NCBI GenBank assembly: GCA_046563655.1
Contig: CM102284.1
Span: forward strand, 434,001 to 498,000
Source of the DNA: Yuukianura sp. NJ FZ-2021
Taxonomy: Eukaryota
DNA length: 64,000 bases
Direction: 5' to 3'
Position 1 is the stretch's first letter. Every line of letters starts with the position of its first letter. The position numbers were made by a program, and so were the translations under genes. The notes below the pieces were generated by a model that had not been told where the DNA came from, ran no database searches, and worked only from the letters and a program-made list of their open reading frames with translations. Positions 4,358-57,741 of the stretch are shown in pieces.

Positions 4358-6989
4358 ATGTCTTCCAGTGGTTCGGCCTGGCTCTTTCTCCAGTACAACA
4401 AGCATCTGAGCGTGATTGGAGAGGAAGTTAAGAATTCATTCCAGAACGAGGCCTGCGCCGATGCCAAAATCGTTTGTGACGGCGGATCCATCAATGTCCA
4501 TCGACTTATCCTCGCTTCAGCAAGTCCCTGGCTCAAAACAGTCTTTGAAGAATCTGGTGGCGATCAACATGTCATTGTCATTCCGGATATCAAGTATGAC
4601 GACATGCTGCTTCTCATTCGGTTCATGTACGGCGGAGAAGTGACTGTCCCACTAAAGCAACTTGGAGACCTCCAAGACCTTATTCAACTGCTTCAACTGG
4701 ATCCTGGACATGTCAATGGCAAGTTCGTCATTGAGAACACACATGACAAGTCCATCACTGCAAACATCCCAGCCACTATCACCGTCGTGTCGCCACCAAC
4801 TGAACAGACAAATCGAAATAACGACGATATTGATGATGACCCAGATGACGACGATGGAGATGCCGAAGAACGTCCAGATTCGCCTAAACCCGAGGATTTA
4901 TCAATCAGCTCAAGCGAGATTCGAGTCAAGAGCGAATATTCAAAAAGTGCATTGGAACCCATGGACATGGTGACAACAGATCGGTCTGTCACGGTATCAC
5001 TTACAGCAGGTCAGAGACGGACACATGAAGAGGCAATGGGAGCAGATGACGATGTGAACGTAGATGACGATGACGATGTGAGTGAGAAGGCTAAGATCCC
5101 AGAGACAATCTTAACGACGACCAGATCACGTGGAAAAATGGGCGGAGTTTCACTTGGGCGACAATCGACAGGAAGTCGTCGGCTCCTTCCGAGTACTGCC
5201 GGAGGCTCTTCTAAACGGACACGCACTAGTGAACGGTTTTCACTCAACATCCCACTCAATAACAATCTTCTCTTGACAAACAACAATGACAGTACTAAGG
5301 AAAAGAAAAAGAAAAAGTCAGCTGTAGCCGTTGTTCCGGCAGCAGCTCCAAGTCCAGACGACATTGGCATGTCACCAGCCGAAGTGGATCCGATGAACAT
5401 GGAAGATGATGGAGAACGCGGAGAGGAACCTTCCAATAACAACTCGGTAATTAATTTCAAACTTAAGTTAAGAAAAATTTAACTAAAGTTAATTAACTTA
5501 AAGTTTACGTCAATTAACAACAACTACCAAGGCTCCCTCTCACACTGAAACTACTCTTCCTTTTTCCTATTTTCTACAAAGTTTACTTTCTTTTTCGCCT
5601 TGTAAGAGAATTTCTGATTACTCATTTTTCTGGTATCCGATTTCTGATGACTGACTCCCTTCGCTGATTTCCGATTTTTCTGATTACTGGTATTTTTCTG
5701 TTTTCTGATTTCTCCGATTTCTGATCTCCGATTTTCCCGATTGCTCTGATTTTTTTTTTATTTCTGATTATTGATTTTTCTCATCTCTGATTCCTGATTC
5801 CTGAGTCCCTTTGCTGATTTACGATTTTTCTGATTACTGGTCTTTCTGTTTTCGGATTTTTTCGATTTCTGATTTTTCTGTTTACTGATTTCTCCGATTT
5901 ATGCTTGATTGCCCTCATTTTCCAATATTTCTGATTGTTCTGATTTTTCATTCTTTTTCTGATTTCTGATTTTTTCCCATCACCTCCGACCGCCCATTTT
6001 TTTTTAGTTTTCTGATTTCCCATCCCGATTTTCTTGTTTTCTCTGACTTTTGTTCTTTAAAACTGTTTTTCCGTTTCTGGGGACTTGGTAGGTGGCGATT
6101 CTGGCGAAAGTAGGGACAAAGATTACGAACACACGGACTAAGACGCCTCATTTGCAGATCATCCCGGAGTCAGGAGTGCTGAGATGCTCCATGTGTCACT
6201 ATGAATGTGCCTCCTACGACGACTACAAGAAGCACGAGAAAGTCCATCAGCCCAACTTCTCTTGCCAGTACTGCGGAAAAGGCTTCTTCATCAAGTGGAA
6301 CCTCATCGCTCATCTCAGAACACACACTGGAGAAAAACCATTCACTTGCTTCTTCTGCAAAGGATCTTTCAGACAAAAGGTAAACTTTCAAAATTTCAGG
6401 GTTTTCAAATTTTGAAAATTTCACATTTTCATGAATTTAGTTATATTTTGAAAGTGCAACCCCTCCTCAGTTAAACAATGTGAGTCATAAACTCTCATTT
6501 TTCGTTTTTTCCTATTTCTGCTGGTAATTTCCGAAATCTTTCCGGGTTCGTTAAAGTTTGATTTTGGCGAAACACAACTAAAAAAAACACAGCATGACAA
6601 GATTTCATTAGTACAACTTTTGTGTACTAATGAAATCTTGTCTGTTCGTTCTTCTGAGGATTATGAAAACGAAAAGAGGTGGAGTGGCGTTTTTAAAAAG
6701 ATGTTTTTTTAAGTTATGTTTTTATACTAATGAAATTTTGTGTGTTCGTTTTCAGGCTCACTTGATCAAGCACATTTCGAGCGTGCATCGATTCCAGGAC
6801 GGCGGGAAAAGTGGAGTTGCTGTGAAGACGGAGAAAGTGAGCGGAAATACTTCTGATTCGAACAGTACTGAACTGGGGGGCAAAGAGGACTTTTCATGCT
6901 GTTTCTGTGGGGAGCCCTTTGAAAACAAAGATTCAATCCGGAAGCACATCTCACAAGCACACAGAGAACTACTCGTCAGAGCTACTTAA
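4358..6989 (+). CDS. BTB/POZ domain C2H2 zinc-finger transcription factor (3 coding exons: 4358-5446, 6092 or 6158-6379, 6756-6989)
   Basis: BTB motifs DAKIVCDGGSINVHRLILASASPW and LLIRFMYGGEV; C2H2 fingers with the HLRTHTGEKPFTC linker; GT-AG phase-0 junctions join RQK|AHLIKHISSVH in frame. Confidence 0.9.
5608..6050. repeat. Low-complexity intronic repeat of TTTCTGAT / CCGATTT units
   Basis: Many degenerate tttctgat copies with an internal duplication (about 5640-5740 vs 5795-5900) inside BTB-ZF intron 1. Confidence 0.7.
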
Positions 6990-8383
6990 AACAGGGGTCA
7001 ACTACTCTTCTTCTCTAAACTTAATTAACTTCTATTAAGTTAACTACAATTTAAAATTAACTTGTTAGTTAACATTTTTGTAATGGATTTAGGTTATGAG
7101 CTAATGACTTACACTCAAGTGCCTTCCAGGAGATGCCTTATATTACCACTACCACAAAATGACCAAATAATCAACTCAAACTTTAAATGATTTGAGTTAT
7201 GATGCCCCCTAAACAGTTTTGGAAAAAAGTGTTTTTTGAAAAACTTAAACTTTTTTGAAATGTTAGGCTACTGATGCTTAGGGCACCTACAAATTCTACT
7301 TTTTGTACTATTGGAAGAAAAGAGGGAGATTTATAAAATATTTAAGTAGAAACTTGTTGCAGGTTGAATGAAAAGTGGCCTTGATAGTCTGGTGTAGTAA
7401 AAAAGAAATTTTTTTTGGCGGGAAGGCGATTTTTAAATTAAAATTCAAAATTTCAGTTTGAATTTAGTTTAGAAAAGTATATTAATTTTTGAAATTCTTG
7501 TTATGTTAAAATGCTATGTTAACTTAACATTGTTAACTGAAATTGATCCCACGCATATTGTATACTAACTCTTTTGTTGTAATTAATTTTCTCTCATTTT
7601 TTGAGTTAAGTTCTAAAAAATTACTTTTTCCAAAAAAACTAAACTTTTTTTTGGAGGTTTTCTTTGTTTTCTTTTGTTTCTTAAAATTTATTTAAAATTT
7701 AAAATTATATGGGGGATATTGTGGGAAATCATGTTGACGTAAATTAAAAAGTGCTTCACTTCTCAACACTTTCGAAATTTCCAAAAAATTCTTTGTCACA
7801 CCTAACTAATCGAAATTTCTAAAAACCGAAAATTTTGACTTTTTGAAATTTTGAGCCGATTCTTCGTAAACCAGGCGTATTGTTGTGATTAATTGGTTAA
7901 GTCAATGAAATTTAAGAATAACGTTGACCTTTGACCCTTGTATTTCTGATTTATTGTCTGCCTATGAATATAAAACAGAAATTGAGTCTACGGAACTACG
8001 CTTTGTCTTGGTTGTTTCTTCCCTTGCTGCATCCTGTTTCTGCCGCCACCTTGTTGAAAGTCTGTTTTAACTTTTGGAGTTTTAACTTTGTTTTAACTTT
8101 TGTTTGGTTGGGTGTAACAATAACAAGCAATTAAAGAAGGGCTCTTCTTCAATTAATTAATTTCAATTAATTAACAACTTCCTAACCCCTACAACCTCCG
8201 TCTTCTAGGCTCCCTAGAAAGAGGACATAGGCTTACGGTTAGGTTACACATCTCAACGGTTTACTCCTGTGGCGTTTAAAGGGGGGGGGGTCACCAGAAG
8301 GGGGGGGGGTCACTAATAATCATCTTCGGTTGCAGTTGAGACACTGATCACTGACCTGTCGCTTATTGCATTTAGGCTGCTAA

Positions 8384-8612
8384 CACTTTTTGACCTCCAG
8401 GCAAAAATTTTTGACTCCGGGCAAAAATTTTGACTTCGGGCAAAAATTTTGACTCGAAGAAGTTCTGGCTCCGGGATGTTTAAACGCCAAGAAGTTGTGG
8501 CCCGAGGAATTTTTGACTCCAGGCAAAATTTTTGACTCGAGGAATTTTTGACTGTGGGAAGTTTTGACTGCAGGCAAAAGTTTTGACTCCAAGGAAAAAG
8601 TTTGACTCCGGG
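8384..8612. repeat. Tandem repeat, ~19-20-bp unit GGCAAAAATTTTTGACTCC
   Basis: About 10 degenerate copies are visible. Confidence 0.8.
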
Positions 8613-8887
8613 GTTTTGTAAATACGTATTTCTGCCACTTTTGTGTAAGTATATAACGACTGCTGAAACTCGGACTGTGATTGGTTGATTTCTATAGCTT
8701 CATCCTCCAATAGAAAAAGACCCTTGCGTTTTTTCTTGAAGAGAGAAGGAACTTGAGCATTTGACGACGTCCGGGAGAGAGAGAGAAAGAGAGAGGAAAA
8801 GCAAGAGATTTGATTGGTTGGGAGAGGGGGAGGAGCTTACGGATTGGCTAAGAACGTTTTGCTTCGGGAGCTACCGGAGAGAAAGTG

Positions 8888-11594
8888 TCATGAGATGCGC
8901 TGGAGAGAGTAAGACCTAGGACATGGTCTTGCGCATGACCATGACAGTCGCCATGACGGTCGCCATGGCGACAGTCGTCTCCATTCGTTGCTGCTGCCTT
9001 GACTAGTAGTAGAAGTAGTAGTAGTAATAGTAGTACTTGGAGTGGATGGACTTTGGCTCTGACTTTTAGTCACCCGACTTTTAGTCACGTGACTTTTCAC
9101 ATGACTTTTCACCAGACTTTTCATAACGTCAGTTTTAACTTTGTGACTTTTCACTACACAACTTTTCACGAAACGACTTTTAATCACGTCACTTTGAGTC
9201 ATGTGACTTTTCAGCACACCACTTTTCGCCATGTGACTTTTCAGCACACCACTTTTTGTCATGTGACTTTTCAGCACACCACTTTTTGTCATGTGACTTT
9301 TCACCACGTGACCTTGAGGAGGGCTCACAACAACATTACATGGCCTGTTGGATTCTACTGGTTGAGTCCTTCTAGGCTCCACCCTTCTAGGCTCCGCCCA
9401 TTCTAAACTTTGGTTACTCATTGGCCTACGTTGACGCTGACTCCGCCTTCTCGACTCCCTGAATCCCGCCCATTCCAGACTCGTGAACAGCAGTGGTGGA
9501 AGGAGGAGGAGCGTGACGGACAAGAGGAGGAGCTTAGGACAACCGCCCCCAATCGACGACGACGTTGAACGCGGAGATTCTGTTGCCACCGACCGTCGAT
9601 GTCGCCAGTCACTTGTCGTCGTTGATGACGTCAGTTGTGCGTGGGAGGAGTCAAGTGACGCAATGAGCGACATAAAGGCCTCCGTAGTCGAAGTGGCTCG
9701 GGGGAAGTCGTACTCTTCGTCCTCCTCTTCGTAGTCCTCCCCCTCAGCAGACGTAAACCCGCCCGGTGGAGGGTCGTCCTCATCCGGGCGGGTCCTGGGT
9801 ACCCTCCGACCGGGCGGGTCGTCGTCCTCATCCGGGCGGGTCCCGGGTACCCCGCTGCCGGGCGGGTCGTCGACGTAGATTGGAACGTCTTCGTAGATGT
9901 CCGGCGGGTCTCGGGCGGGCGTGGGACTGGACGTGTCCTGGGAGACTAAGCACTGGAGGAAGACCTGCTTCAGGGTCTCTTGGTCTGCGGACGGGGGGAG
10001 GAGGGGGTTGGCTTCATGGAGATTCGTCTCCAGGGGAGACAGTTCTTGTCCTCAAGGTCACTGCGCCGCAGAGTGGAGGACAGGAAGTTGTATGTTTTGG
10101 GGAGGGCCGTGGTGTATGTCCAGCAGCACTGGGACACGTTGACCCGCCCACGACTGTCCGTGAGGAGCGGGTGTTCGTCGTCGTGGTTCGCACCATAGTC
10201 TTGGCAGTAAGTAAAATTGAAGTTACGGAGGTCGAGGGACCGGAGCGGGAAGGAGGCGGGGCTCAGACCCGCCTCAGACGGATTGAAGAGGATGCAGACG
10301 AGGGCGTCGGCGGGTGTGGCTCGTCTGAAGAAGTAGTCCTCCGTGTGGTGGTGGTTGGAGTCTGTGTAGGTGGTGGGGCAGTGGAAGGCGGGATGGCCGC
10401 CGTACTGAGAGGGATGGAGGGCGGGTTTGCCTGAGGCTTCGACCTGGACACGGTCTGGAGAGAGGTACGGGCACACACGGATCACTTGGTGACACGTAGA
10501 ATCACAACGGTTCAGACCCGCCGGCAAAAGCCCTTCCGCCAACAGGCTGCAGCTCCAGTCTCGGTAAGCCTCCTGAAAATTAAAAAAAAAATCCTCAAAA
10601 ATTTTGAACAATTTAAAACTTTTTTCAAATTCAAAAACGGTTTTGAAAAATTGCTTTGAAGAAATGTGAACAAAGTTAGTACTAGAATTCTACTAACTTT
10701 CACATTTCTTCAAAACAATTTGTTTCAAATTACATTAAAAATAAAAATTTTTAAATTTTGCCGGAGTTACAAGAATGCTGCATATGCGTACTGGGCCAGC
10801 GTCGGAAAATATTGTGTGTTCTTTTTTTGCTGCACATGTTTCTTGGGCTTGGCCGAGAAATATTTTTTTACTAGCATTCGTAGCATGCGTGTTGGGGCTA
10901 CGCCGGACCGGACTAAATGTAAACAAACTTAAATACTAACATACTTCTTAGCTTCGGAAACTAAATGATACTTAACATTAACGCTAAATTAATGCAGAAC
11001 TAACATAAAACTAACGTATTAAGGTGAATCTTGTACTAAATTAATAAACAAAAATAGGTTGTCAAAATTTATTAAAACTAAAAAAAAATAAAAATTACTT
11101 TTAGAACTAATGTAAAATTACTGGAAATTAATGTAAAAGTAATGGAAATTCAAGTAGAATTAATGGAAAATAGTGTAAAATAAATGACAATTAATTAAAA
11201 TGAATATACAATATATATATTATTTTGTGCTTACTTGACAGCCGAGTCTCCACCTTGGCCTGACAGTGAAGGGTTGTGCGCAGTCCATTTTGTTGAGGAC
11301 CCTGACCATGTCGCAGAAGAAGGCCTTGGCCCGCGGGAGCATGTCGCGAACCGCTCTTCTGGCCGTGTCGTTGAGGAGGGTTGTGTTGAGGAGGGCAGAG
11401 CAGAAGACGGGCCATCGCCTCGCCTCGGGGCAGTCCGTCCATTCCGTCCACTCCGTCCAGGATGTGTCCAAGGACGGCGGCTCGTCCGCGGACGGACTCC
11501 TCAGAGGGACGAAGACCACGAGAAAGACGAGCACCACGACCCACACCCAGTCACGCACACCGCACAAAGATCCCTGCGGCGGAGGCAGTGCCAT
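8888..11594 (-). CDS. NALF1: NALCN channel auxiliary factor (NALF/FAM155/NLF-1/Mid1 family); exons 11594-11235 and 10572-8888, with an apparent frameshift near 10051-9970
   Basis: N-terminal hydrophobic segment; cysteine-rich domain motifs DCAQPF, CQ|EAYRDWSC, CHQVIRVCPYLSPD and YGGHPAFHC match FAM155/Mid1. An acidic linker and a second hydrophobic helix (LLLLSVTLLLLPPLLF) lie in the -1 frame. In-frame TAG upstream of ATG 11594. Confidence 0.8.
9060..9312 (-). repeat. 15/30-bp tandem repeat (KSHMTKSGVL units) in the NALF tail
   Basis: gtgacttttcagcacaccactttttgtcat repeated, with degenerate flanking copies. Confidence 0.85.
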
Positions 11595-19606: not shown

Positions 19607-22600
19607 ATGTCAGGAAGAGGAAGAGCAACGATGAACTTTTTACGTGGAGGAGGTGCCGGAGGGAAATCGCGGATGTATGCTGATGGTGGAACTGTAAACT
19701 TCGGTCACGGTGAGAGAGATCATACTGCAACACAATTTTCTTGAGTTATTTGCATTTAGCACTTGAGGATTGATTAGTTTTGTTTACTATTGATTTAGAT
19801 GATCGAATGAACATGAACTTTACATCAAATAGAAGCAGAACGATCAGAAGAGTACCAAGAAACTTCCAGCATCGTCTGGGAGGAGACGATGATGTTCAAA
19901 TGGACGGTCCGGATGGGATGAATCGAAACTTTGCGTAAAAGAAATTTAGAACTGGAGGGAACTTCGATATCCTATGATCTAAAAATCTAAACATATTGTG
20001 TTTTTTGTTGACCTTGATAGAAATCGGGGAGGTTTTCGAGGCAGAGGTCAATTCAGAGGAGGTCAAAGGATGAGACGAGGAAATCGCAGAATTGACAACA
20101 ACAACCACAGTTTCGGTCCTGGTTGGCACAAAGTCACGGTAAGGTGTCACTCAAAGCATAGAAACGTTTATCAAAAGATTCTTTGATTATTGATTGATGA
20201 AAGTTTAACTTTTGGGTCCATGCCAATACATCGAAAAAAAGACATCGAAACGAAAGACATCGACACAAAAGACATCGACACGAAAGACATCGACAATAGA
20301 AACACATCGACAATGAAACACATCGACAAAAAAGACATCGACCAAAAAGACATCGACAATAGAAACACATCGACACAAAAGACATCGACAATGAAAACAC
20401 ATTGACACAAGGGACATAATCCGTATAATTAAATAAGCAAGGAAGTTTACGTAACCTAAGTGAAAAAAACACTAGTAAAATTTTGAAAAGTGAAAGTCCA
20501 CCTAAGCCAGACCTAACAAGTGGCCCTACCGACGTAATCACTATGACGTGCTTTACCAAACCTAACGCCGCGCCTTCGGCGCGGTACCGCAAGCTAAGCT
20601 AGCCATACGTCATCAGTATTGCCAGACATATTTTTTTTTCAAAATTTGAAGAAGAATACGCAATTTCATTTCCTGGTATAAAAAATAAAATTTCTGTCGA
20701 TGTCTTTTGTGTCGATGTGTTTCGTTGTCGACGTATTTCTATTGTCGATGTCTTTTTGGTCGATGTCTTTTTTGTCGATGTGTTTCATTGTCGATGTATT
20801 TCTATTGTCGATGTCTTTTGGGTCGATGTCTTTCGTGTCGATGTCTTTTGTGTCGATGTCTTTTTTTCGATGTAATGGCGTGCTTCGTAACTTTTAGATA
20901 CCCAATGGGGCAACACTTGACAGAGATTTTGTCTTGAACAGCATCGGCTCATTGACGCAAGCTTCCTTCCAGCCAATTTCGGTAAGTTTCCATACTTCTA
21001 TAAAACTACTGCTTCAACATCCAGCATCAACACAAAAATACTTACAACTTTTCAACATCTCTTTTCAGTACACAAAACTAGCCGTGAATGCAATTTTCTT
21101 CATTGAGAACCGCGAATGTGCAGAAGCAGTTGCCGCTTGTTCTGGTCGATTCAGTGGACCAGACGCCCAACCAGTAAGCCACTTTTCACAAAAATCGACC
21201 GTATTTTAAACTTTTAGGCGCTCGAAATAGCGCTCAAGAATGACGAATTTGGTTGAATTTCAGATTTTGCTAAAAGTGGACACAAGTGGACCCCCTCCAA
21301 CAGCCACACTTGATGCAACAGTTGAAGCTGCATTAAAAGCAGCCCTTATCCCAAGATACGATCCTGCTGGACCCTCGTTGAACTTACAAAACTTTTCAAA
21401 CTCACCCGAAGTTGTGCGTGAATACTACGTTCCACTGTTCCGGCCCAGTGTTGTAACAAAAATCTTCAACATCCTTATCGAGATACTGCCGAAACTTCAG
21501 ATTCTGGATATATCCAGCAACAAACTCGGAACGTTAGAATCTTTCCAGAAGTTGGCCCAACTCACACCTAACCTAAAAGCGTTGAACTTATCCGATAACA
21601 AGGTAAGTTTATCGTACTTAAGAAGTTAAAGTTAGTCGGCTCAAGCTCAGCTGTTTTTATATTTAGTTCTTTAGACTCTCTTGAGTTACTAAGTTACTAT
21701 CCAGACTATCTTGAGCTACTATTTATCTAAAATATCTCGTGCTACGAGTTATCTAAACTATCTTAATTTACTCGTTATCTAAATATCGAGGTAGTTTTCT
21801 TTATCTAAACTATCCTGAGTTACTAGTTATCTAAATATTGAGACAGTTTTTTTTATCTAAGCTATCCCGAGTTACTAGGTATCCAGAACCTATCTTGAGT
21901 TGTTATTTATCTAATTATGTTTAGAAGTTGGATAGTTATCTAAACTATCTTTATCTAATATCGTTCCTTATCCTTATCTTTGCAGTTGCGAGATGTTTTC
22001 CTGCTGGAGAGGATAAAAGGCCTTCCCTTGCTGGAGATTGTACTGGACAAAAATCCTCTTGTAGACAAGTTCGCCAACAAGGACGACTACATCAGGTCAT
22101 TCGATAAATTCAATTTTCCCGCTCCTTTAACTTAACTTTACCGCAATTTTTTTCCCCGCCAGTTTCCCTTGCGACAAAACTTCCCCGAGTTTAAGTGTAA
22201 ACTTCAAGGAATTTGAGTACCAATGCCACAGCACAACAAGTTGGGAGAACCTGTGTTTGGGGTATCAAATTTTTTTTTTAATTTTGAAGAATTTGAAATT
22301 CTGGAATTAGTGAAGTACCAAGTCAGGGATCACCTAAGTTCTGGTTCGAAGCTGTAAAAACGACTCGAGTGGCTTAATTTTGGAATTTTGAAAATTCAAA
22401 TTTTGAACTTTTTCTAAAGAATGAGCTGGGATAAGGAGAATTGTTTGAAAAGGCAGCAGTTACGACGATCGGAATGAATTGGATGGTTGGTGATGCTCCG
22501 TTCTCGGTCTCAGTTTTCAGTCGCAACGGATGTCAGTTTGCTTCACCAGCGGCTACCACCGTGAAAACGGTGTCTTCGAAAACTCCGAAATTTTGGGAGG

Positions 22601-49035: not shown

Positions 49036-49123
49036 GTTCTTTCTTATACGGTTACTCTTTTCTTTTTATTCTAATAAATTCTGGTATCCACGGATATGCT
49101 GAGCACCGACGAGGTATGCATGC

Positions 49124-49488
49124 TGCAACAACCCCGCAGTCCCTGAGACCGAAACTGTGATTTCCTCTACAGGGAAATCTGCAGTTCAGGTCGAATCTTC
49201 CTGGAGAGAAGATTTGACCTGAGGTCAACAATGCTTGGTTCTCCTAATGTGCCAACATCAACTGGAAAATGAAATGGTCGAGAACAACAAAGTGAACTAA
49301 TGGAATAACTTTTATTGAGATGTTCACTTGTTGAAGGTTGGGAAGAGACTCCCGCTACAGAAAATGCGAATAAAGATCTTTCTGTAACCTACACTCAGAG
49401 AACATAGTCCTCCTACTTTACCTATGCCTAACTACTCGGTTTCCTCCGGAGTTCCGAATCCGTCCCTCGTCAGTCCCTGTCCGCTTCA
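49124..49488 (-). repeat. 3' LTR
   Basis: Identical by eye to 53385-53749; AATAAA on both strands. Confidence 0.95.
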
Positions 49489-50486
49489 TATTGCGCCCGC
49501 GAAACGCGCCTCCATCAGCGCCATCTCCATGCACGGTCCTCCGACCTCGACCAGCGGATAAAATCTTCGTCTTCTTATCGTCTCGTTTCCACTCGACACG
49601 TCCAGAATTCCCACGTTTTGTCTTAAGTTTCTCCCGTTTCTTCATGTTAGTTGTTTGAGTCAAATGAATTCTGTTGACTGGACATTGTTCAAAATAGAGG
49701 TTCCGGAATTGTTTTCTTTCCAAAATATTGCTTTTCTGTCCGGTTGTTGGTTGACTTTCGGGCATTCTTGCCTGTTGTGTCCATTCGAGAAACAAATGAG
49801 TAAATCTTTGAAGTTAGACTGTTGAATTGTTGTAGGATGTAGTAACTGTCAAAACTTGTCTCTGATGTTGTTAGATGTTGATCTGCAACTCATCAGTTAT
49901 GTCAGCAATGTCTTCTTCAGCATATCGTTGTGCCAATTTGTTTTGAAGTAAAGTTGCGTTTCGACTGCTTGTCACTTCCATTGGTTTGTCAGTAAATTGA
50001 GTGTTCTTGACACTTTCGTCAGAAGTCGGCAATAATTTTGATTTCTTCTTCACTTCAACGTTTGTTTGACATTGTCGACTTCTTCTACGGAGAAGTCAAC
50101 ACCGATTTTCTCTTCAGGAAAATCAGTACCACGTTTTTACAAGTAGAAATTCTCTCTTCCGGAGAATTCCAATTTCCAATGTCCTCTACAGGGAATTTAG
50201 AGTAAATCTTTAGACTGTTTGTGCTGAATCTGGAGAGCATTTGAGATATTTAGATAAATGATTGTAAGTTTGCGCTCTAAAGTGAGGTTGTGACTAAAAC
50301 TCTGACTTAGCGGAAACTGCTTAACGTCAACGTACGATTTTCTATAGTAACGACTAAATGTACTGGACTATATTATTTCAGTACTATTAAATAATTCAGC
50401 AAAATTATAAATCTATTACATTATGATTTATACTATAATAATTTGAATATTTTCTTAACTAATGATTAATTATTATTTTGCCTTAA

Positions 50487-52064
50487 CTAATGACGTAGGC
50501 CTGCCAATGACCTATAATTTACTTGTTTTCTTTCGCGTAATTTGCTGGTAACTGCTGGACTTGTCGGAATGTCACTGGTTGCTTTCTTCTCGCGTAACTT
50601 CCTGGTAATTGGTTGACTTTTCCGAATGTCATTGTTCTTGATTTCTGACACAGTTTCTTCTCGAACAAAAAATGGTTTTAGCTCCAAAGCGTGACGTCTC
50701 CCGAATTTCTTGTTTGTGACTGGATCTGCTAACTCGTAGCTTGCGTCTGCGGTTTTTGATGTAATTTTGAAAGGGCATAGCCGTCGTTTTGAAAATTTTT
50801 GCATCATCTCATCGTCCTTTTTGGGAATTGGGTGATTTCGAATTAAGGCTACATCACCACTGTCGTATATAACATCTCGATGAGAACTGTCGTAATTTTT
50901 CTTATTTTCTTCACGTTCCTCCTCCATGTTCTCGCGTACCCATTTGATTAATTCTTGAAGTTTCTCGGGTAAACTTGTCAATTTCGCGCTTTCTTCATCA
51001 AAATTGGTGTTTCCTTTAGCTTCCAAATTTCTGTCAAACGGAAGTGGCAAATCGTTGCCTAAGTTCAAAAGGGCTGATGTAAATTTTGGTTGTGGTAACC
51101 CAGATGGTAGGGTATTGTCTGGCTTTGTCGTTTGACAAATTTTGCATGACTTGACGTAGTCAGCAGTGTCCTTATTCATTCTGTTCCAGAAACATCGATC
51201 TTCGATTTCCTCTTTTGTCTTCTTAACTCCAAGATGACCTGGCTTCGGTGCATCATGAAAAATCTTCTGAATTTCATTTTGGAGTGACGTTAGGATAACT
51301 GGAATCTTGATTTTTTGCAAAACGCGCTTCTGTTTTGACATATTGGGTTGGTTTGACTCTGGTACGATCCCTGCCGACTGAACTTGATTAGGTTCCTCCG
51401 CACTGGATGTACATTTTTGGAAACCCGGAATTTCCATTTTTTGAATTTGAGTTTCAGCTACTTTTGAGTGAACCTCGGTAGTATCTGCGAGAGAGTACTT
51501 TTTGATTCTCTTGAGCGGAATCTCGACTTGACGCTTCACTATTCCAACTTCAATTAAGAAGTGTGTACACTTGGAATTTGAAGGGTCATCACGAATCAAT
51601 TTCTTGAGACGTGAAGTTTGAATTTCATTTTCTTGATCAATTTTGATTTGGTTCGAAGTCGGTGTCTCGTAACAGAAACACACAAGGGTACAGACGATCT
51701 CTTCTGGATCGTCCGTTCCTTCAGTGTCATGACTGTCAACTGGAGCTCGTGAGAGAACGAAAATGTGTGCACTCCGTTCCGGTTTCTTTAGGATTTTGGA
51801 GATGAATAAGATTGGCCGATCCTTTCCATCTAAAGCTTGAACTTGCGCGGTGCCCAAGCTAATGTCGGATGCGTCACATTTGAGAATAATTGGAATTTTG
51901 GATTGAATTTTGATTTTTGATTGGATGTGTTTTGTCAATTGTTCTGTCATCATGCAAAACTTAGACACTGAGTCCAAGAATGCAGAAAATTTGAATTGAA
52001 TTGAAATAACTTGAGTTGTAGGTACACCTCTTGAGATTTTGTGGATTATCGGGAGAACACACAT
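50487..52064 (-). CDS. Internally deleted Pol-like ORF (RNase H N-terminal part, integrase HHCC zinc domain, GPY/F-like region; no RT or DDE core seen)
   Basis: ILKCDASDISLG..DRPILFISKIL (RNase H start); FHDAPKPGHLGVKKT..FWNRM..VKSCKICQ (HHCC); KFSKRRLCPFKI (GPY/F-like). Confidence 0.8.
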   Translation of the reverse strand: MCVLPIIHKISRGVPTTQVISIQFKFSAFLDSVSKFCMMTEQLTKHIQSKIKIQSKIPIILKCDASDISLGTAQVQALDGKDRPILFISKILKKPERSAHIFVLSRAPVDSHDTEGTDDPEEIVCTLVCFCYETPTSNQIKIDQENEIQTSRLKKLIRDDPSNSKCTHFLIEVGIVKRQVEIPLKRIKKYSLADTTEVHSKVAETQIQKMEIPGFQKCTSSAEEPNQVQSAGIVPESNQPNMSKQKRVLQKIKIPVILTSLQNEIQKIFHDAPKPGHLGVKKTKEEIEDRCFWNRMNKDTADYVKSCKICQTTKPDNTLPSGLPQPKFTSALLNLGNDLPLPFDRNLEAKGNTNFDEESAKLTSLPEKLQELIKWVRENMEEEREENKKNYDSSHRDVIYDSGDVALIRNHPIPKKDDEMMQKFSKRRLCPFKITSKTADASYELADPVTNKKFGRRHALELKPFFVREETVSEIKNNDIRKSQPITRKLREKKATSDIPTSPAVTSKLRERKQVNYRSLAGLRH

Positions 52065-52100
52065 CGAGGTGGTTATTGGTGTCTCCCTTGGGAGTTTAAA
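52025..52100 (-). promoter_or_regulatory. -1 programmed ribosomal frameshift signal (U_UUA_AAC + H-type pseudoknot)
   Basis: Heptamer in phase with ORF1; 6-nt spacer; stem 1 GGGAGACAC/GUGUUCUCCC; stem 2 CACCUC/GAGGUG; the -1 frame is the Pol-like ORF. Confidence 0.8.
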
Positions 52101-52510
52101 TCTGGTTTCTGATTGGTACTCTCGGCATCATTTTGTTCATTAACTTGACTCGATTCTGGAATGCGAACGTAATCTGCTCCACTCGGTACAGCACGTGAAC
52201 TGGATTGACCAGAAGCCGTAGTGCGCATGCCTGTTGTTGCTGTTGGAGCTTGGGTTGTGATAGTTGAAGCAGTAGATGAGACGATAGGGACTTGGTTTGC
52301 TACAGTTCGTTGAACAACGGAACTTGCATCTGAACTTCCATTTGAGTAATCATCTTCATCTACTGGATTTTGAATTTGCATGTCACTTTCAACATCATCA
52401 TCATCAATTGGTTCTTCAGGAATTTGATTTATGTTTTGTCTGTCCATGTTAAATCCTTGTAGGAATGCACGAGAGTTTCGATCCAAATCTCTCACTTCCC
52501 TTCTGCTCAT
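52073..52510 (-). CDS. Short ORF1 in the gag position (145 aa, low complexity)
   Basis: First ORF after the 5' UTR; it overlaps the Pol frame at a slippery heptamer; no capsid or zinc-knuckle motif recognised. Confidence 0.55.
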   Translation of the reverse strand: MSRREVRDLDRNSRAFLQGFNMDRQNINQIPEEPIDDDDVESDMQIQNPVDEDDYSNGSSDASSVVQRTVANQVPIVSSTASTITTQAPTATTGMRTTASGQSSSRAVPSGADYVRIPESSQVNEQNDAESTNQKPDLNSQGRHQ

Positions 52511-53384
52511 TAGTTAATACTGGAAACGAAATTCTCTACGGGAATTTCAATTAGCCAGTTAACTGAGTTAGTTTTTAGGATTCTGTTTGTTTTAATTGGT
52601 TTTGAGATGGTCTTGGTGTCGATGCTCTCTTCAGGACCTTCAACTCCACGTTACAACTTGTTCCTCTCCTTGAGTTTTTGATTTCCTCTACAGGGAAATC
52701 TAAGTATTTGGTAATTTTTGGAAAATCGGGCAGCACCCGTGCGTGATTTCGAATTTTTGAAATTTTTTGGGCAGCACCCGTGCGTAATGTTTGATTTTGG
52801 AATTTTTGGCAGCACCAGTGCCTTTATTTTATGTAGGGGTTGTTATATGAATCTCTTCCTTCTTTTAATTTGGCATCAAATGGACAATGAACGATTTTCT
52901 CTACAGGAAAATCGGTTCAGTCTATCGAAAAATCTCTTCAGGATTTTTCAAAATGAGCGACGAATTGCTCTCTGTCCTTTGGTTTGGTGTCCTTGACCTC
53001 TGAACTTTTCTCTACGGGAAAATTTCAAAGTGTTTGAATTTTTGAAAAAATCGGGCAGCACCCGTGCGTGAAAACGATTTTTGGAAAATTTTTGGCAGCA
53101 CCCGTGCCTTTATTTGACCTTTGACCTGACCCGTCTTTTCTCTACCGGAAAATACAGGTAGGTTGTTGATTTATTCCAATGCTGGATTGCTTTTCTCTAC
53201 AGGAAAATCAATCAGCTGGTAGGTCAGAATTTCCTCTACAGGGAAATTCTCATCGGTTTATCTCGTCTCCTTCTTCAGTTGTCTTCAATTGAGCCTTTCT
53301 CTACAGGAAAGTCTCACTTGACCTCTTGACCTTTCATTTCAGTTGAGAACATGACATCACTGGAATGATCCCTTCGGCCGCCAC

Positions 53385-53749
53385 TGCAACAACCCCGCAG
53401 TCCCTGAGACCGAAACTGTGATTTCCTCTACAGGGAAATCTGCAGTTCAGGTCGAATCTTCCTGGAGAGAAGATTTGACCTGAGGTCAACAATGCTTGGT
53501 TCTCCTAATGTGCCAACATCAACTGGAAAATGAAATGGTCGAGAACAACAAAGTGAACTAATGGAATAACTTTTATTGAGATGTTCACTTGTTGAAGGTT
53601 GGGAAGAGACTCCCGCTACAGAAAATGCGAATAAAGATCTTTCTGTAACCTACACTCAGAGAACATAGTCCTCCTACTTTACCTATGCCTAACTACTCGG
53701 TTTCCTCCGGAGTTCCGAATCCGTCCCTCGTCAGTCCCTGTCCGCTTCA
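53385..53749 (-). repeat. 5' LTR
   Basis: Adjacent to the PBS-like sequence at 53367-53383. Confidence 0.95.
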
Positions 53750-53990
53750 ATGCATAACTTTTTCATGAAGCCAAAAAAGTTAAAGGTCAGCCTCTGCAAA
53801 TCCTCCAGGACTTTCTGGGCTTCATCGAACAAAGTTAAAATCAATTTGTACAAAAAGTTTGAGTATTAGAAGTTAGCAGTATTTAAGCCTCCCTTTTCCA
53901 GAATTTGGCAGTAGTTGTTCATCCTTCGTCGCTTGGTGAAGGTGGATCCATCCAGAAAAACTCGAATTATTTGAAGATTTTTAACAAAAG

Positions 53991-55643
53991 ATGAGTTACA
54001 GTGGTGGCTACAATGGTGGCTACATGCCACCACCTTATCCACCCGGTGGCTACGGCTATCCACAGTGGGGTCCACCAAATCCATTTACGACTTCGTTCCA
54101 AGCATCGCTCCAACCTGGAGCCAGTCGGTTCGGAAACCAAACCGTGGTGGACAAAGTTCCAGCAGAGATGTTGAGTCTCATAGATCCTCATTGGTACCAA
54201 TTCCCTCCGATGAATCCTCTGTGGCACTCGATTCTGGGTGTTGCCATGACGATATTCGTCATTTTGTCGCTCGCTGGCAACGGAGTCGTCCTGTCCGTCT
54301 TCATGTCAACCAAATCCCTGCGCACTCCAGCCAATCTCCTGGTGGTCAATCTCGCCTTCTCTGACTTTTGCACCATGTTGACCATGGGAATTCCAATGAT
54401 CATCAACTGCTACTACGAAACATGGATTTTCGGTAAACCATGAATCATAACTTAACTTGAGTTGATTAATCATGATTAACTTACCTTGGATATGTTAGGT
54501 CCACTGATGTGTGAAGTTTATGGAATGCTGGGGTCACTCTGGGGGTACCTTTCAATTCACTCCATGGTTCTCATTGCTCTGGACAGATACAATGTCATCG
54601 TCAAGGGTTTTGCCTCAAAACCACTCACCACAAAATCCGCCATTTTGAAAATCCTCCTCACGTGGTTCATCGCTCTCGTCTGGACAGTCATTCCACTTTT
54701 CGGCTGGAACAGGTAAGTGCAATGCCCAATATGCAAGCAATGTATTCCTCAAGGTTCGTAAACAAAATAGTTTTTTCTTCAACAGGTTAGCCAATAACTA
54801 GAACTTTTTAAATTTTTAAACGTTTTGGACAGATACGTTCCGGAAGGGAACATGACATCTTGTGGACTGGACTATCTGAACAAGGATTGGTTCTCACGGT
54901 CCTACATCTTGGTCTACGCATTCTTCGTCTACTTCCTTTCTCTGTTCACTATCATTTATGCTTACTACTTCATTGTCAAGGTATGTATGCAGTTTTCAAA
55001 ATTTCGAAAGAAAAAAAATCAAAAAAAAAAAATTCTGAAAACTCAACCTGGTTTCCAATTCCAGGCCGTTTTTAGTCACGAGAAACAAATGCGGGAGCAA
55101 GCTAAGAAAATGAATGTAGCCTCTTTCCGTCAGAACCAATCCGACGAGACCAAGAAACAGTCTACGGAAGCTAAACTCGCAAAGGTAATTAAGTAAACTA
55201 ACCTTAATCAAGTAAACTAAACTTAATCAACTAAAAACTCAATTAACTACTCATTAGCACTATCCGTTTATCCTTAGATTGCTTTGATGACGATCAGCCT
55301 TTGGTTCCTGGCTTGGACTCCCTACCTCGTCATCAACTTTACCGGAATCTTCGAACCATCCAAGATCTCTCCACTGGCATCAATCTGGGGCTCAGTCTTT
55401 GCTAAAATGGGCGCCATTTACAACCCAATTGTCTATGCAATCAGGTACGCCTTACTCACAACTCTAATTAAAGTTAATTAATTCCTCAATTAATCAATTA
55501 ATTGATCCTTTAGTCACCCCAAGTACCGTGCTGCTCTGCTCAAGAAGTATCCTTGCCTGGCCTGTGCCACGGAACCACCGGAATCAGACATACTTTCCCA
55601 AACATCGAATGTCACCAAGGCTAACCTCGAGGAGACGGCCTAA
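53991..55643 (+). CDS. Long-wavelength-type rhabdomeric visual opsin (6 exons)
   Basis: [69 protein letters not shown], retinal-binding Lys in [18 protein letters not shown]. Confidence 0.96.
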
Positions 55644-55856
55644 TTCCTACACTCCGCAATCTGGACTTGCAAATGTCGTTTGTCAAACGAATTTTAAAAC
55701 ATTACATTTCTGCAATTAGTGTCACTTTTAATTACTTTGTCATCAGTTTCTCGAGTTGTAGCATTAGAAGAACCGCCAGAATGAAAAAGTTTAGCTAAAT
55801 ACTATGCAAATTAGTTGTTTTCTCCCAGGATTTTGTGGAATACAAATGAGAGTGAT

Positions 55857-56765
55857 TTATGCTGTGGTGGTTGTGGGTTTGACGATGCAGTGAGTGACAC
55901 CGTCACTTAAATAAGCGATTTGAGCAAAGGCTGCTCTGGAGAGTGTAAGACATCGACCGTAAGCAAGGTCCTTCGGCCTTCCCACGATCTGGACGGTAAC
56001 TGATCGCTTGAGTTCGGGATTTGTGACGGAAACGTACGAACCAATCGGAAGTTTGGGATGGAGTCCGGAAAGACTGGTGGGATCCATGTAGTATACTTGA
56101 CGCTTGAAGAATCGCTGCGTAGCATGAGCTGGATTGGTATAGTCTCCAGACGTAGTACTTCCGCCGCTATAGGTACTCGCTGGGACGTACCCGGTTCCAG
56201 TGTTTCCGTAGTAAGTACCTTCAGCATTTTGGTGGTACCCATTCTTATTGGTATATCCTGTGTCGATACCGCTATAATCTGTGTTGGTACCGCTATATCC
56301 TGTGTCGATACCGCTATATCCTGTGTTGGTACCGCTATATCCTCCATTGGTACCACTATATCCTGTGTTGGTACCGCTATAACCTCCATTGGTACTGGTA
56401 TAGCCGCTATTTGCACCGCTTAAGTATGCAGCTACTGATGGATCGTACCCAGCGTTTGGATGGTAGCCAGTTGCCCATGAATTTAAGTTATCGTAACCAG
56501 TATTAGCGTAGCCTGAGTCCACAGCGCCACTAGAATCCTCGTCCGCCATTTCTCCAGTTGTTGACCAATCACATTCCGCATCCTCTAAAAACAAGTTTAA
56601 TTAAACTAAAAGTTTAAATATTTGGGCGCTAAATTCTTAATTTGTGATTGATTGCTGACCTGTGTTTGGTGGTAGCGTCGGGTCTGCCGACCAGAAGCCA
56701 CCCAAAACGCCTGGGATGGCAAAGCCAACAATGTTTAGTGTCGTTACAAACATTCGCAGCTTCAT
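55857..56765 (-). CDS. Secreted protein with GYSGTN repeats and a C-terminal RlpA-like double-psi beta-barrel; exons 56765-56660 and 56584-55857
   Basis: Signal peptide MKLRMFVTTLNIVGFAIPGVLG; 21-bp repeats; GTYYG, LHPKLPIGSYVSVTNPELKRSVTVQI and GRCLTLSRAAF align by eye with the RlpA pattern AHxTLPxGTxVRVTN..GRSVxVRI..GRIIDLSxAA. Confidence 0.75.
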
Positions 56766-57135
56766 CACCGCTAAATTCAAATTCTTAACAAACGACACTC
56801 TAAAAAAAGCCGGAACGCGGTGAGTTTGAAAACGGAGTTGACTTAAACTACTTTTTTTAAATAAACTTTTATGAAGGAGAGCCAAAAGTTGAAAATCGTA
56901 AGTGAAAGGTCTTGGTCAAGGCTCACGTCATTTATACACGCAAGGCTAAGGGTCGCTTCAAGTGTACCCTTAGCAATAAGTAGGTCAAGGGTGCATGACT
57001 TCGAATTTTGTGCGATCCCTTCGTGTTCAAACAAAATTGGATGTAGGTCACTTGCGTGTTTTCATGTAGGTCAAGGTCTTTTACTTAAAATTCTCAATTT
57101 CCAAAGTCACATACGTTGGTTTTTCAAACAGATTT

Positions 57136-57741
57136 TCACTCAATTACTTCCTTGTAGTGTGCTAAATGCTCGTCACAATTCCCCCATCGCTTCAACCTCA
57201 GCTCTAGTAAAAAATAAATAAATCATGAAATTCTGAAATCTTCAAATTTTTTCAACTCGCTTACTCGGATCTTTGCGCTGGGCACAGAGAAAGAAACATC
57301 CGTTGTCGTACGTCTTTGCATCAGAACCTAAGTCAAAGTAAAAGGTCAAAGTCAAAATAGAGGTCAAAGGTCAAAGGTCAAAGTCCTTACCACAATGGGG
57401 GTCAATGAATCGTTCCACACACATGCATCCCTCTTGTCGCTTCTTCTTCTCCTTGTCTTTTTCACGGTGTCCATGCGCTATTTCGTCAATGTACTGCAAA
57501 ATCCCACAAAAAATTTGAAATTTCAAAATTTGAAATTGCCATTTTCAAAAATTCAACTTAAATAGTTAAATTTTAATTTTCTTACGTCAAATTCTGCTGG
57601 AAGATCGTATCTCGCGTTGGCTATAAGGAGGGCTTTGTATCTCTCTATATTTTTCGTTTCTTCTTCCGTAAGTCCTGCAAATCCATTTCTAGGAACCACA
57701 AAATACAAAATTAGAACAAAAAGATGTAGGCGTATGGTCAT
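57136..57741 (-). CDS. Secreted single-domain Kazal-type protease inhibitor (4 exons)
   Basis: Signal peptide; spliced GCMCVERFIDPHC|GSDAKTYDNGCFFLCAQRKDP|KLRLKRWGNC carries the six-Cys Kazal pattern. Confidence 0.85.

Follow-up and report, generated by a model that had tools for sequence, protein, structure and literature searches.

The 64,000-nucleotide stretch analysed here (the window; contig CM102284.1, positions 434,001 to 498,000) contains a gene on its minus strand (55857..56765; two exons, product of 277 amino acids) that ends in a double-psi beta-barrel (DPBB) domain of the kind found in the bacterial lytic transglycosylase RlpA. A sequence-only reading had placed the gene at these coordinates and described a signal peptide, one intron and a Gly/Tyr/Ser/Thr/Asn heptad repeat, all of which are present. 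Exon 1 (56660..56765, minus) opens with the ATG at 56765-56763, the first in-frame ATG downstream of a stop, and its translation reads MKLRMFVTTLNIVGFAIPGVLGGFWSADPTLPPNT, with one further base that begins a split Glu codon. The N-terminus (MKLR, about 18 hydrophobic residues, then ..WSA/DP) was judged by eye to be a signal peptide, and by eye it has no Cys for a lipobox. The spliceosomal intron (56585..56659, minus; 75 nt, GT..AG, phase 1) has a GC content of 26% (76-nt slice). Exon 2 (55857..56584, minus) comprises 241 codons and the stop TAA at 55857-55859. Residue numbers below follow the working protein P0001 (55860-56585, minus strand, 242 amino acids). It and the spliced product are identical from residue 36 of the latter, since the acceptor G rebuilds an identical Glu codon. 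Three Cys are present in the mature protein (positions 5, 212, and 233). A possible polyadenylation signal (ATTAAA, 55727..55732, minus) lies 124 nt past the stop, as a motif match only. Rfam gave no matches at gathering scores, and tblastn inside the window returned only the DPBB gene itself (next match E 0.063).

The core of the C-terminal domain (residues 160-238; 55872..56108, minus) was recovered by Pfam, phmmer, AlphaFold, and Foldseek, and its identity as an RlpA-type DPBB, first proposed from the letters alone, is confirmed. The Pfam family DPBB_1 scored 29.8 bits on the mature protein (gathering cut-off 28.8) and 32.1 bits on the domain alone (E 1.4e-7); it was the only family found in the mature protein up to E 10, with no SPOR or other domain. 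The best NCBIfam rows were two RlpA models followed by the expansin EXLX1, all far under their cut-offs (PRK10672, 25.7 bits against 201; TIGR00413, 23.2 against 82.15; EXLX1 NF041144, 20 against 100). Among PDB sequences, the sole non-compositional phmmer match was 4avr, the Pseudomonas aeruginosa protein PA4485 (E 1.1e-4). An AlphaFold2 model built from 77 aligned sequences gave a predicted local distance difference test (pLDDT) score above 90 for residues ~165-240, with a disordered repeat and no second folded domain. All 12 Foldseek matches to the PDB at E 1e-3 or better were DPBB proteins. The top match was again 4avr_A (E 4.8e-8, template modelling (TM) score 0.81 on the target); the others included a cyanophage baseplate protein, expansins, a loosenin, and the Streptomyces papain inhibitor, followed by kiwellins, barwins, and cerato-platanins. 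The C-terminal domain is basic (isoelectric point (pI) 9.7 for residues 160-242).

The two aspartates conserved in RlpA are lost, as had been claimed. In the alignment with 4avr, Gly202 (codon 55980..55982, minus) stands opposite the Asp of NDRG, the 'NDRGP' motif of RlpA, and Thr214 (codon 55944..55946, minus) opposite the Asp of IIDVS, the 'IIDLS' motif. We aligned the 150 top-scoring hits from the exhaustive search described below and counted residues at both columns, setting aside 9 members of an animal-like group; among the remaining 141, Asp occupies the NDRGP column in 130 and the IIDLS column in 126. P. aeruginosa RlpA has one catalytic Asp, numbered D168 in the accessible text of PMC9712689, and the motif context in that paper leads us to equate D168 with the IIDLS column. 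According to the same text, E. coli RlpA is inactive since its catalytic Asp is Ser. Thr occupies the catalytic column in the window's protein, in P0003, and in P0004 (CLTLS, ALTLS, and CLTLT, respectively), the last two being its close orthologues; the loss would therefore be old, with the protein retained since. Elsewhere in the animal-like group the column holds Asp in 2 of 9 members and Glu in 3 of 9. Because the catalytic Asp is replaced by a conserved Thr and the second conserved Asp by Gly, we infer that the protein cannot act as an RlpA-type lytic transglycosylase.

Ahead of the barrel, the mature protein begins with an acidic stretch (56526..56584, minus) that reads EDAECDWSTTGEMADEDSS and includes a conserved 'AECDW' with Cys5, a candidate first strand and disulfide partner. 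It is followed by a low-complexity region (residues 21-159; 56109..56525, minus) defined by composition (Gly 20.1%, Thr 15.8%, Tyr 13.7%, Ser 11.5%, Asn 10.8%; pI 4.3) and predicted to be disordered (pLDDT <50 over most of it). Tandem Repeats Finder located an array of 21-nt units here (56252..56420, minus; 6.4-6.5 copies per row) encoding the heptads GYSGTNT and GYSGIDT. Matches to the RNA polymerase II C-terminal domain (PDB 5x4z and others, E 3.4e-7 and weaker) were rejected as compositional, as only the Tyr/Ser/Thr-rich heptads align. A contig from one public sequencing run (X2) steps back from 56402 to 56309 within the array, with 11 letters between, which hints that repeat copy number varies in the population.

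Which segment supplies the first strand of the barrel bears on how the repeat is placed. The sequence-only reading had matched 'GTYYG' and 'TTSGDY' to RlpA motifs, and this stands in part. MAFFT aligns 'GTYYG' with RlpA 'ASWYG', AlphaFold draws a strand at residues 119-125 (pLDDT ~60), and the surrounding 'QNAEGTYYG' is partly kept in the orthologue described below ('YYQNAAG'). The competing candidate is 'AECDW' just after the intron, the counterpart of the 'GEC(S)W' first strand of compact relatives. In the Folsomia candida relative P0044, AlphaFold places the 'GEC.W' segment as strand 1 (pLDDT ~95), with its partner Cys on the last strand, and the 'AECDW' head is about as conserved as the DPBB core against the orthologue. 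With the head as strand 1, the repeat would have been inserted within the domain. For the second motif, the many-sequence MAFFT alignment sets 'TTSGDY' opposite RlpA 'TASGE'; by eye, RFFKRQVYYMDP would instead take that position, since 'YYMDP' aligns with RlpA 'RFDP'.

An orthologous locus (L081, a 12-kb metagenome contig) carries the DUF4471, Kazal, DPBB, and opsin genes in the same order and orientations as the window. Its signal-peptide exon ends in a phase-1 intron at the identical position (...STT|EDAECDW), its Kazal exon scores 20.7 bits for Kazal_1, and P0004, a close match of the window's protein, is an internal-Met reading of its DPBB gene. Between the DPBB gene and the opsin, L081 has ~2.5 kb of extra sequence (6000-8500) absent from the window; the additional open reading frames (ORFs) there have no Pfam match, and one (6362-6694, plus) opens with a signal-peptide-like stretch. 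Another candidate locus (L082) was discarded as a chance wrong-frame match on a GC-rich, bacterial-looking contig. The DPBB cores of the window and L081 (79 codons) are 65.8% identical at the protein level, with proportions of nonsynonymous (pN) and synonymous (pS) differences of 0.27 and 0.84; one opsin exon is 86.5% identical (pN 0.07, pS 0.69). The core is under purifying selection, because pN is far under pS; we give no dN/dS ratio, as pS of 0.81-0.84 is beyond Jukes-Cantor correction (synonymous sites are saturated). It has nevertheless evolved ~4.5 times faster than the opsin exon (dN 0.33 vs 0.07). The invariant His, the VTN motif, and GR..LS.AAF are retained in the barrel. The acidic head is 63.2% identical (12 of 19 residues) and the repeat region 49.0%. 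The repeat unit measures 21 nt in the window and 27/54 nt in L081; the array has therefore been rebuilt within the lineage. Together, the two loci show that the DPBB gene was inherited vertically within this lineage.

The DPBB gene is a true part of the animal genome and not contamination, because it has an intron, animal neighbours, contigs from a second study, and synteny in a second species; the sequence-only reading was right on this point. Two studies have public runs with contigs over the locus. One contig of 1088 bases, belonging to the second study, reaches from the opsin to the 3' part of the DPBB gene (54823-55910, 2 mismatches); another of 613 bases covers 56557-57169. The best-matching run may be the source sample, so the contigs are only partly independent. 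Two further contigs depart from the window. A contig of run X1 (depth 13.7, against ~140-380 for the main contigs) joins both ends of 55685-57362 with 12 other letters between, so that the DPBB gene is missing entirely, along with the Kazal gene's 3' exons; a deletion allele, DNA of a relative, or an artefact of assembly may account for this junction. A contig of run X4 (depth 6.1) differs over the DPBB core (55881-56118) at 17 of 238 bases, compared with 2 of 1088 for the opsin contig, and may be a divergent allele or a close paralogue.

For the genomic setting (GC content 40%), we scanned 137 of the 139 window ORFs of at least 88 residues for domains. The neighbours include BTB and zinc-finger proteins, PAP2, Rpb4, NXF1, RFC, RPL8, an opsin, DUF4471, TPR and SEP proteins, dynein heavy chain exons spread over ~15 kb, and a gypsy-type element. 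Upstream of the DPBB gene lies a gene for a small secreted Kazal-type protein (57136..57741, minus), its four exons (57741-57586, 57493-57391, 57327-57265, and 57203-57136) read by eye from short ORFs. This adjacency, noted at the outset, holds: Kazal_1 scores 22.1 bits against a cut-off of 21 on one exon (57245-57370, minus), and the six-Cys pattern becomes visible only once the four exons, as read by eye, are joined. A single-ORF regular expression for that pattern found nothing relevant in the window because introns split the gene. The convergent downstream neighbour is a long-wavelength-type r-opsin gene (53985..55643, plus; 7tm_1), whose stop is ~215 nt from the DPBB stop. The best named matches of its first exon are insect long-wavelength opsins (55-72% identity), and an unnamed protein matches at 85%. 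These matches mark the host as a hexapod-type arthropod without close named kin in the collection searched, and the lack of a close named opsin, with the GC content of 40%, suggests that it is not an aphid. Between RPL8 and the opsin sits a long terminal repeat (LTR) retrotransposon (49123-53683) with ORFs for RNase H and integrase zinc-binding domains (50490-52127, minus). Its direct repeats (49123-49422 and 53384-53683) are at least 300 nt each, 4261 nt apart, and 100% identical, which suggests a recent insertion. Farther away, Cys/Arg-rich low-complexity ORFs (CRCL..) on both strands at 20242-20829, matched by the Kazal regular expression, are probably a simple repeat, and an ORF at 8957-9403 with a pentapeptide-repeat match (Pentapeptide, 31.9 bits, cut-off 20.2) sits in the GC-richest part of the window (49% at 8001-10000).

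Close relatives of the DPBB protein are scarce. An exhaustive HMMER search of 1,835,955,588 representatives returned 184 at E 1e-3 or better, 2 at E 1e-10, and none at E 1e-30; a word-based protein search gave one match. The two matches at E 1e-10 are P0003 and P0004 (60-61% identical). Weaker relatives form a group of ~10-11 with the window's protein; they look secreted and have GR..LS.AAF in common. In this animal-like group Cys replaces the Ala of 'ASWY' (GEC.W), a Gly/Ser/Tyr- or Gln/Asn/Pro/Tyr-rich tail is frequent, and a Cys near the C-terminus occurs in 8 of 9 members against 5 of 141 proteins elsewhere. One member carries an organism name, the Folsomia candida 'spore wall protein 1' (P0044). 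Labelled relatives outside the group are all bacterial, and JGI calls several of them 'rare lipoprotein A'. Among 78 named loci, the best-scoring belong to Actinomycetota, e.g. Nonomuraea and Micromonospora. The nearest ESM Atlas clusters are unnamed Bacteroidota proteins (0.89-0.90) and DPBB_1 clusters (0.88), which we treat as a lead only.

Phylogenetic resolution was limited by the short domain. In a quick unrooted tree (118 rows, 85 columns), the window's protein and ten group members separated from the other 107 rows with a support of 95 in the Shimodaira-Hasegawa-like approximate likelihood ratio test (SH-aLRT); those 107 rows include 45 named loci (21 Actinomycetota, 19 Pseudomonadota, and others). 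For a more careful tree (87 rows), every other bacterial row was dropped, and 12 divergent multi-domain proteins contributed 21 additional domains. We read the disrupted animal-like group in that tree as probable long-branch noise, and the approximately unbiased (AU) test leaves a single clade unrejected (p 0.36). Bacterial proteins with 'V[IV]G[RK]' may be closer kin of the trio formed by the window's protein, P0003, and P0004.

Published traces of the family point to springtails. In Orchesella cincta, supplementary Tables S3 and S5 of PMC4987106 list a lineage-specific family, orthoMCL12529, with three O. cincta genes; ten further species, among them A. pisum and D. pulex, have none, and Table S5 annotates Ocin01_19577 as an RlpA-like DPBB. 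The open literature searched yielded no paper containing both 'RlpA' and 'Collembola', and the family's sole trace there was one supplementary-table row. The Folsomia candida genome paper mentions neither RlpA nor DPBB in its main text or three supplementary files, nine supplementary files of the Holacanthella paper contain 0 occurrences, and RlpA, DPBB, and transglycosylase are absent from the main text of an arthropod fusion-gene paper (PMC13389597).

The reading that best fits this sequence comparison is a horizontal transfer from bacteria to a springtail-like lineage; we consider it very probable, because the labelled relatives are bacterial, close matches are few, and the O. cincta family has no members in the ten other species. 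The transfer proposed by the sequence-only reading thus keeps its footing in the bacterial labels outside the group of ~11 proteins, and falls short of a donor. The contrary case, best hits forming a vertically inherited metazoan clade, is realised only as a small animal clade with vertical descent within the lineage, not metazoan-wide. We would put at an even chance the fuller account in which this hexapod, probably springtail, gene received its C-terminal domain from a bacterial RlpA-type lytic transglycosylase domain by horizontal transfer and then passed it on by vertical descent, with the dead barrel now acting as the glycan binder described below. Several observations weigh against that account, those on ligand and activity being given with the alternatives they favour. 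The DPBB_1 cut-off is exceeded by 1 bit only, and across 11 group members 8 pass it, 2 score 20.6-21.4 bits, and the L081 orthologue has no Pfam match at E 0.01. With a single organism-named member, 'animal-only' is an assumption for the rest of the group. In the careful tree, a very long Bacteroidota-like branch joins the trio and breaks the animal-like group, and the unrooted trees of 85-87 columns show neither a donor nor nesting inside bacteria. Such rootless, donorless trees, in which most rows carry no taxon label, also leave room for an old eukaryotic DPBB that descended vertically without any transfer and was lost from most animals; plants and fungi do have DPBB_1 proteins, seen here as fold matches. 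We regard this as very unlikely: named sequence-level relatives outside the small group are all bacterial RlpA, eukaryotic expansins, loosenins, and kiwellins match by fold only, 10 other arthropod and nematode genomes lack the O. cincta family altogether, and just 2 of 1.84 billion representatives reach E 1e-10.

What such a protein might do can be approached by analogy. We propose a lectin-like glycan anchor on a cross-linkable extracellular protein, a function to which we give about equal weight for and against. The product would be secreted, its dead barrel would bind glycan strands of the N-acetylglucosamine (GlcNAc) type in lectin-like fashion, and the bound barrel would tether the long disordered, Tyr/Gly-rich, probably cross-linked region to the extracellular matrix. 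Dead enzymes whose fold is kept under selection usually keep ligand binding, and a Tyr/Gly-rich make-up is typical of cross-linked structural or adhesive proteins. Chemical analysis has reportedly found Gly, Tyr, and Ser in springtail cuticle. The substrate of the parent enzyme is the glycan backbone of peptidoglycan, chemically close to chitin, and several fold relatives are non-hydrolytic polysaccharide binders. Glycine-rich structural proteins are named in springtail cuticle in the accessible portion of PMC9861782. As ligand, the animal's own chitin-containing matrix would be slightly favoured over bacterial peptidoglycan.

That preference is narrow, and the nearest competitor to the anchor is a peptidoglycan sensor or antibacterial lectin whose dead barrel binds bacterial glycan strands in immunity or microbe feeding, as catalytically dead peptidoglycan recognition proteins (PGRPs) do. 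The parent family acts on peptidoglycan glycan strands (PMC9712689, accessible text), the dN of ~4.5 times that of one opsin exon and the turnover of repeat units fit a microbe-facing gene, and a secreted Kazal-type protein is a conserved neighbour. The placement of the O. cincta RlpA-like gene in one orthoMCL family with a lysozyme-like-domain protein (PMC4987106, in its supplementary tables) likewise points to peptidoglycan over chitin, although such grouping may reflect low-complexity sequence alone. Against this, structural or adhesive proteins are the more usual bearers of long Tyr/Gly-rich repeats, and we consider a sensor possible and clearly less probable than the anchor.

If another acidic residue had replaced the lost Asp, the protein could still be an active wall-modifying factor, lytic or expansin-like, that digests fungal, plant, or bacterial walls. 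The Asp of the adjacent 'RPKD' loop might conceivably take over from the lost residue, other members of the animal-like group have Asp (2/9) or Glu (3/9) at the catalytic column, expansins and a loosenin are among the fold neighbours, and springtail genomes hold many horizontally acquired cell-wall-degrading enzymes, as far as the accessible text of PMC5490193 goes. Yet Thr is fixed at this column in three orthologues, E. coli RlpA with Ser there is inactive according to the P. aeruginosa study (PMC9712689), and no second expansin domain accompanies the EXLX1 score of 20 bits against 100, so that we hold continued activity to be quite unlikely. Nor need the ligand be a glycan: the Streptomyces papain inhibitor and kiwellin are DPBB proteins that bind proteins, and both types are fold matches here (5ntb and kiwellins, E 5.8e-4 to 4e-3), which would suit a protease inhibitor acting alongside the Kazal inhibitor conserved next to it in two species. 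But the sequence similarity is to RlpA and not to the papain inhibitor, with 4avr as the sole non-compositional PDB sequence match, the retained barrel motifs (H, VTN, GR..LS.AAF) are those of RlpA, and gene adjacency alone is weak evidence; we find a protein-binding role highly unlikely.

Returning to the glycan anchor, a bolder version of it would join the head and the barrel. The ancestral strand 'AECDW' would be disulfide-stapled to the last-strand Cys and parted from the rest by a lineage-specific Tyr/Gly-rich repeat insertion of 110-150 residues. Such a split barrel would make a new kind of arthropod matrix protein, in which the dead bacterial RlpA barrel, in place of the customary chitin-binding modules, anchors a cross-linked layer rich in glycine and tyrosine (e.g. 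the springtail epicuticle). We offer this as a speculation that is quite unlikely to hold.

Set against known systems, the protein shares with bacterial RlpA the core pattern H..LP.G..V.VTN...SV.V.I...GR...LS.AA, and E. coli RlpA shows that a non-catalytic form, its catalytic Asp replaced, can occur naturally (PMC9712689, accessible text). It differs in having no lipoprotein signal, no SPOR domain, neither Asp, scores under the NCBIfam cut-offs, and a eukaryotic gene structure. PA4485 (P. aeruginosa, PDB 4avr), a stand-alone RlpA-like DPBB, is its best match by both sequence and fold; unlike it, PA4485 is bacterial, keeps both Asp, and has no repeat region. Expansins, loosenins, and cerato-platanins share the fold (Foldseek E 1e-4 to 3e-2); these proteins are secreted and act on polysaccharides without hydrolysis. 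Beyond the common Pfam family they have no significant sequence similarity to the window's protein, which is without the second domain CBM63 of expansins. Expansin activity needs a conserved Asp, and that residue is missing here. The protein is thus neither an active RlpA enzyme, judged by catalytic Asp, NDRGP Asp, SPOR, lipoprotein signal, and NCBIfam cut-offs, nor an expansin.

Its closest parallels are in arthropods. Folsomia P0044 likewise combines a signal peptide with a DPBB_1 domain (29.3 bits) and a Gly/Ser/Tyr-rich region, and it groups with the window's protein in the quick tree (95 SH-aLRT). It is weakly similar (38% identity over the matched stretch, E 1.4e-5), carries its repeat after the domain, and has Glu at the catalytic column. 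The folded part of P0044 is DPBB_1 (AlphaFold core pLDDT >90); the Gly/Ser-rich tail seems to have given rise to the label 'spore wall protein 1', which makes this a mis-named entry. The O. cincta gene Ocin01_19577 is likewise an RlpA-like DPBB and lineage-specific, a likeness drawn from its annotation in Table S5 of PMC4987106. The best-known case is that of aphids (Acyrthosiphon pisum and others), whose bacterially derived RlpA genes have been on record since 2009 (PMC2662799); with the springtail table entry they precede the present gene and narrow the novelty that had been supposed for it. Aphid RlpA genes encode a signal peptide, knottin modules, and a DPBB, have introns, and are highly expressed in bacteriocytes, as described in the accessible parts of PMC2662799 and PMC9116674. 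Like the gene described here, RlpA1-5 are, in those same parts, arthropod nuclear genes with spliceosomal introns and a eukaryotic signal peptide, in which the DPBB of bacterial RlpA, without SPOR, is fused to sequence foreign to bacterial RlpA; no donor has emerged in either case. Where aphid RlpA has cysteine-knot (knottin) modules, the window's protein has three Cys and a Tyr/Gly-rich repeat. No knottin-bearing protein was among its 150 best hits; the two families are therefore not close, and the lineage described here is likely independent of the aphid acquisition. If so, a second arthropod lineage, apparently independent of aphids, would have acquired the RlpA barrel from bacteria and remodelled it, in this case with another eukaryotic partner attached, the catalytic residue lost and the domain still under selection. 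The family is small, fast-evolving, and easily tested, it flags the Folsomia candida entry for renaming, and beside the aphid genes it would offer a clean natural case of an enzyme becoming a binder after transfer between domains of life.

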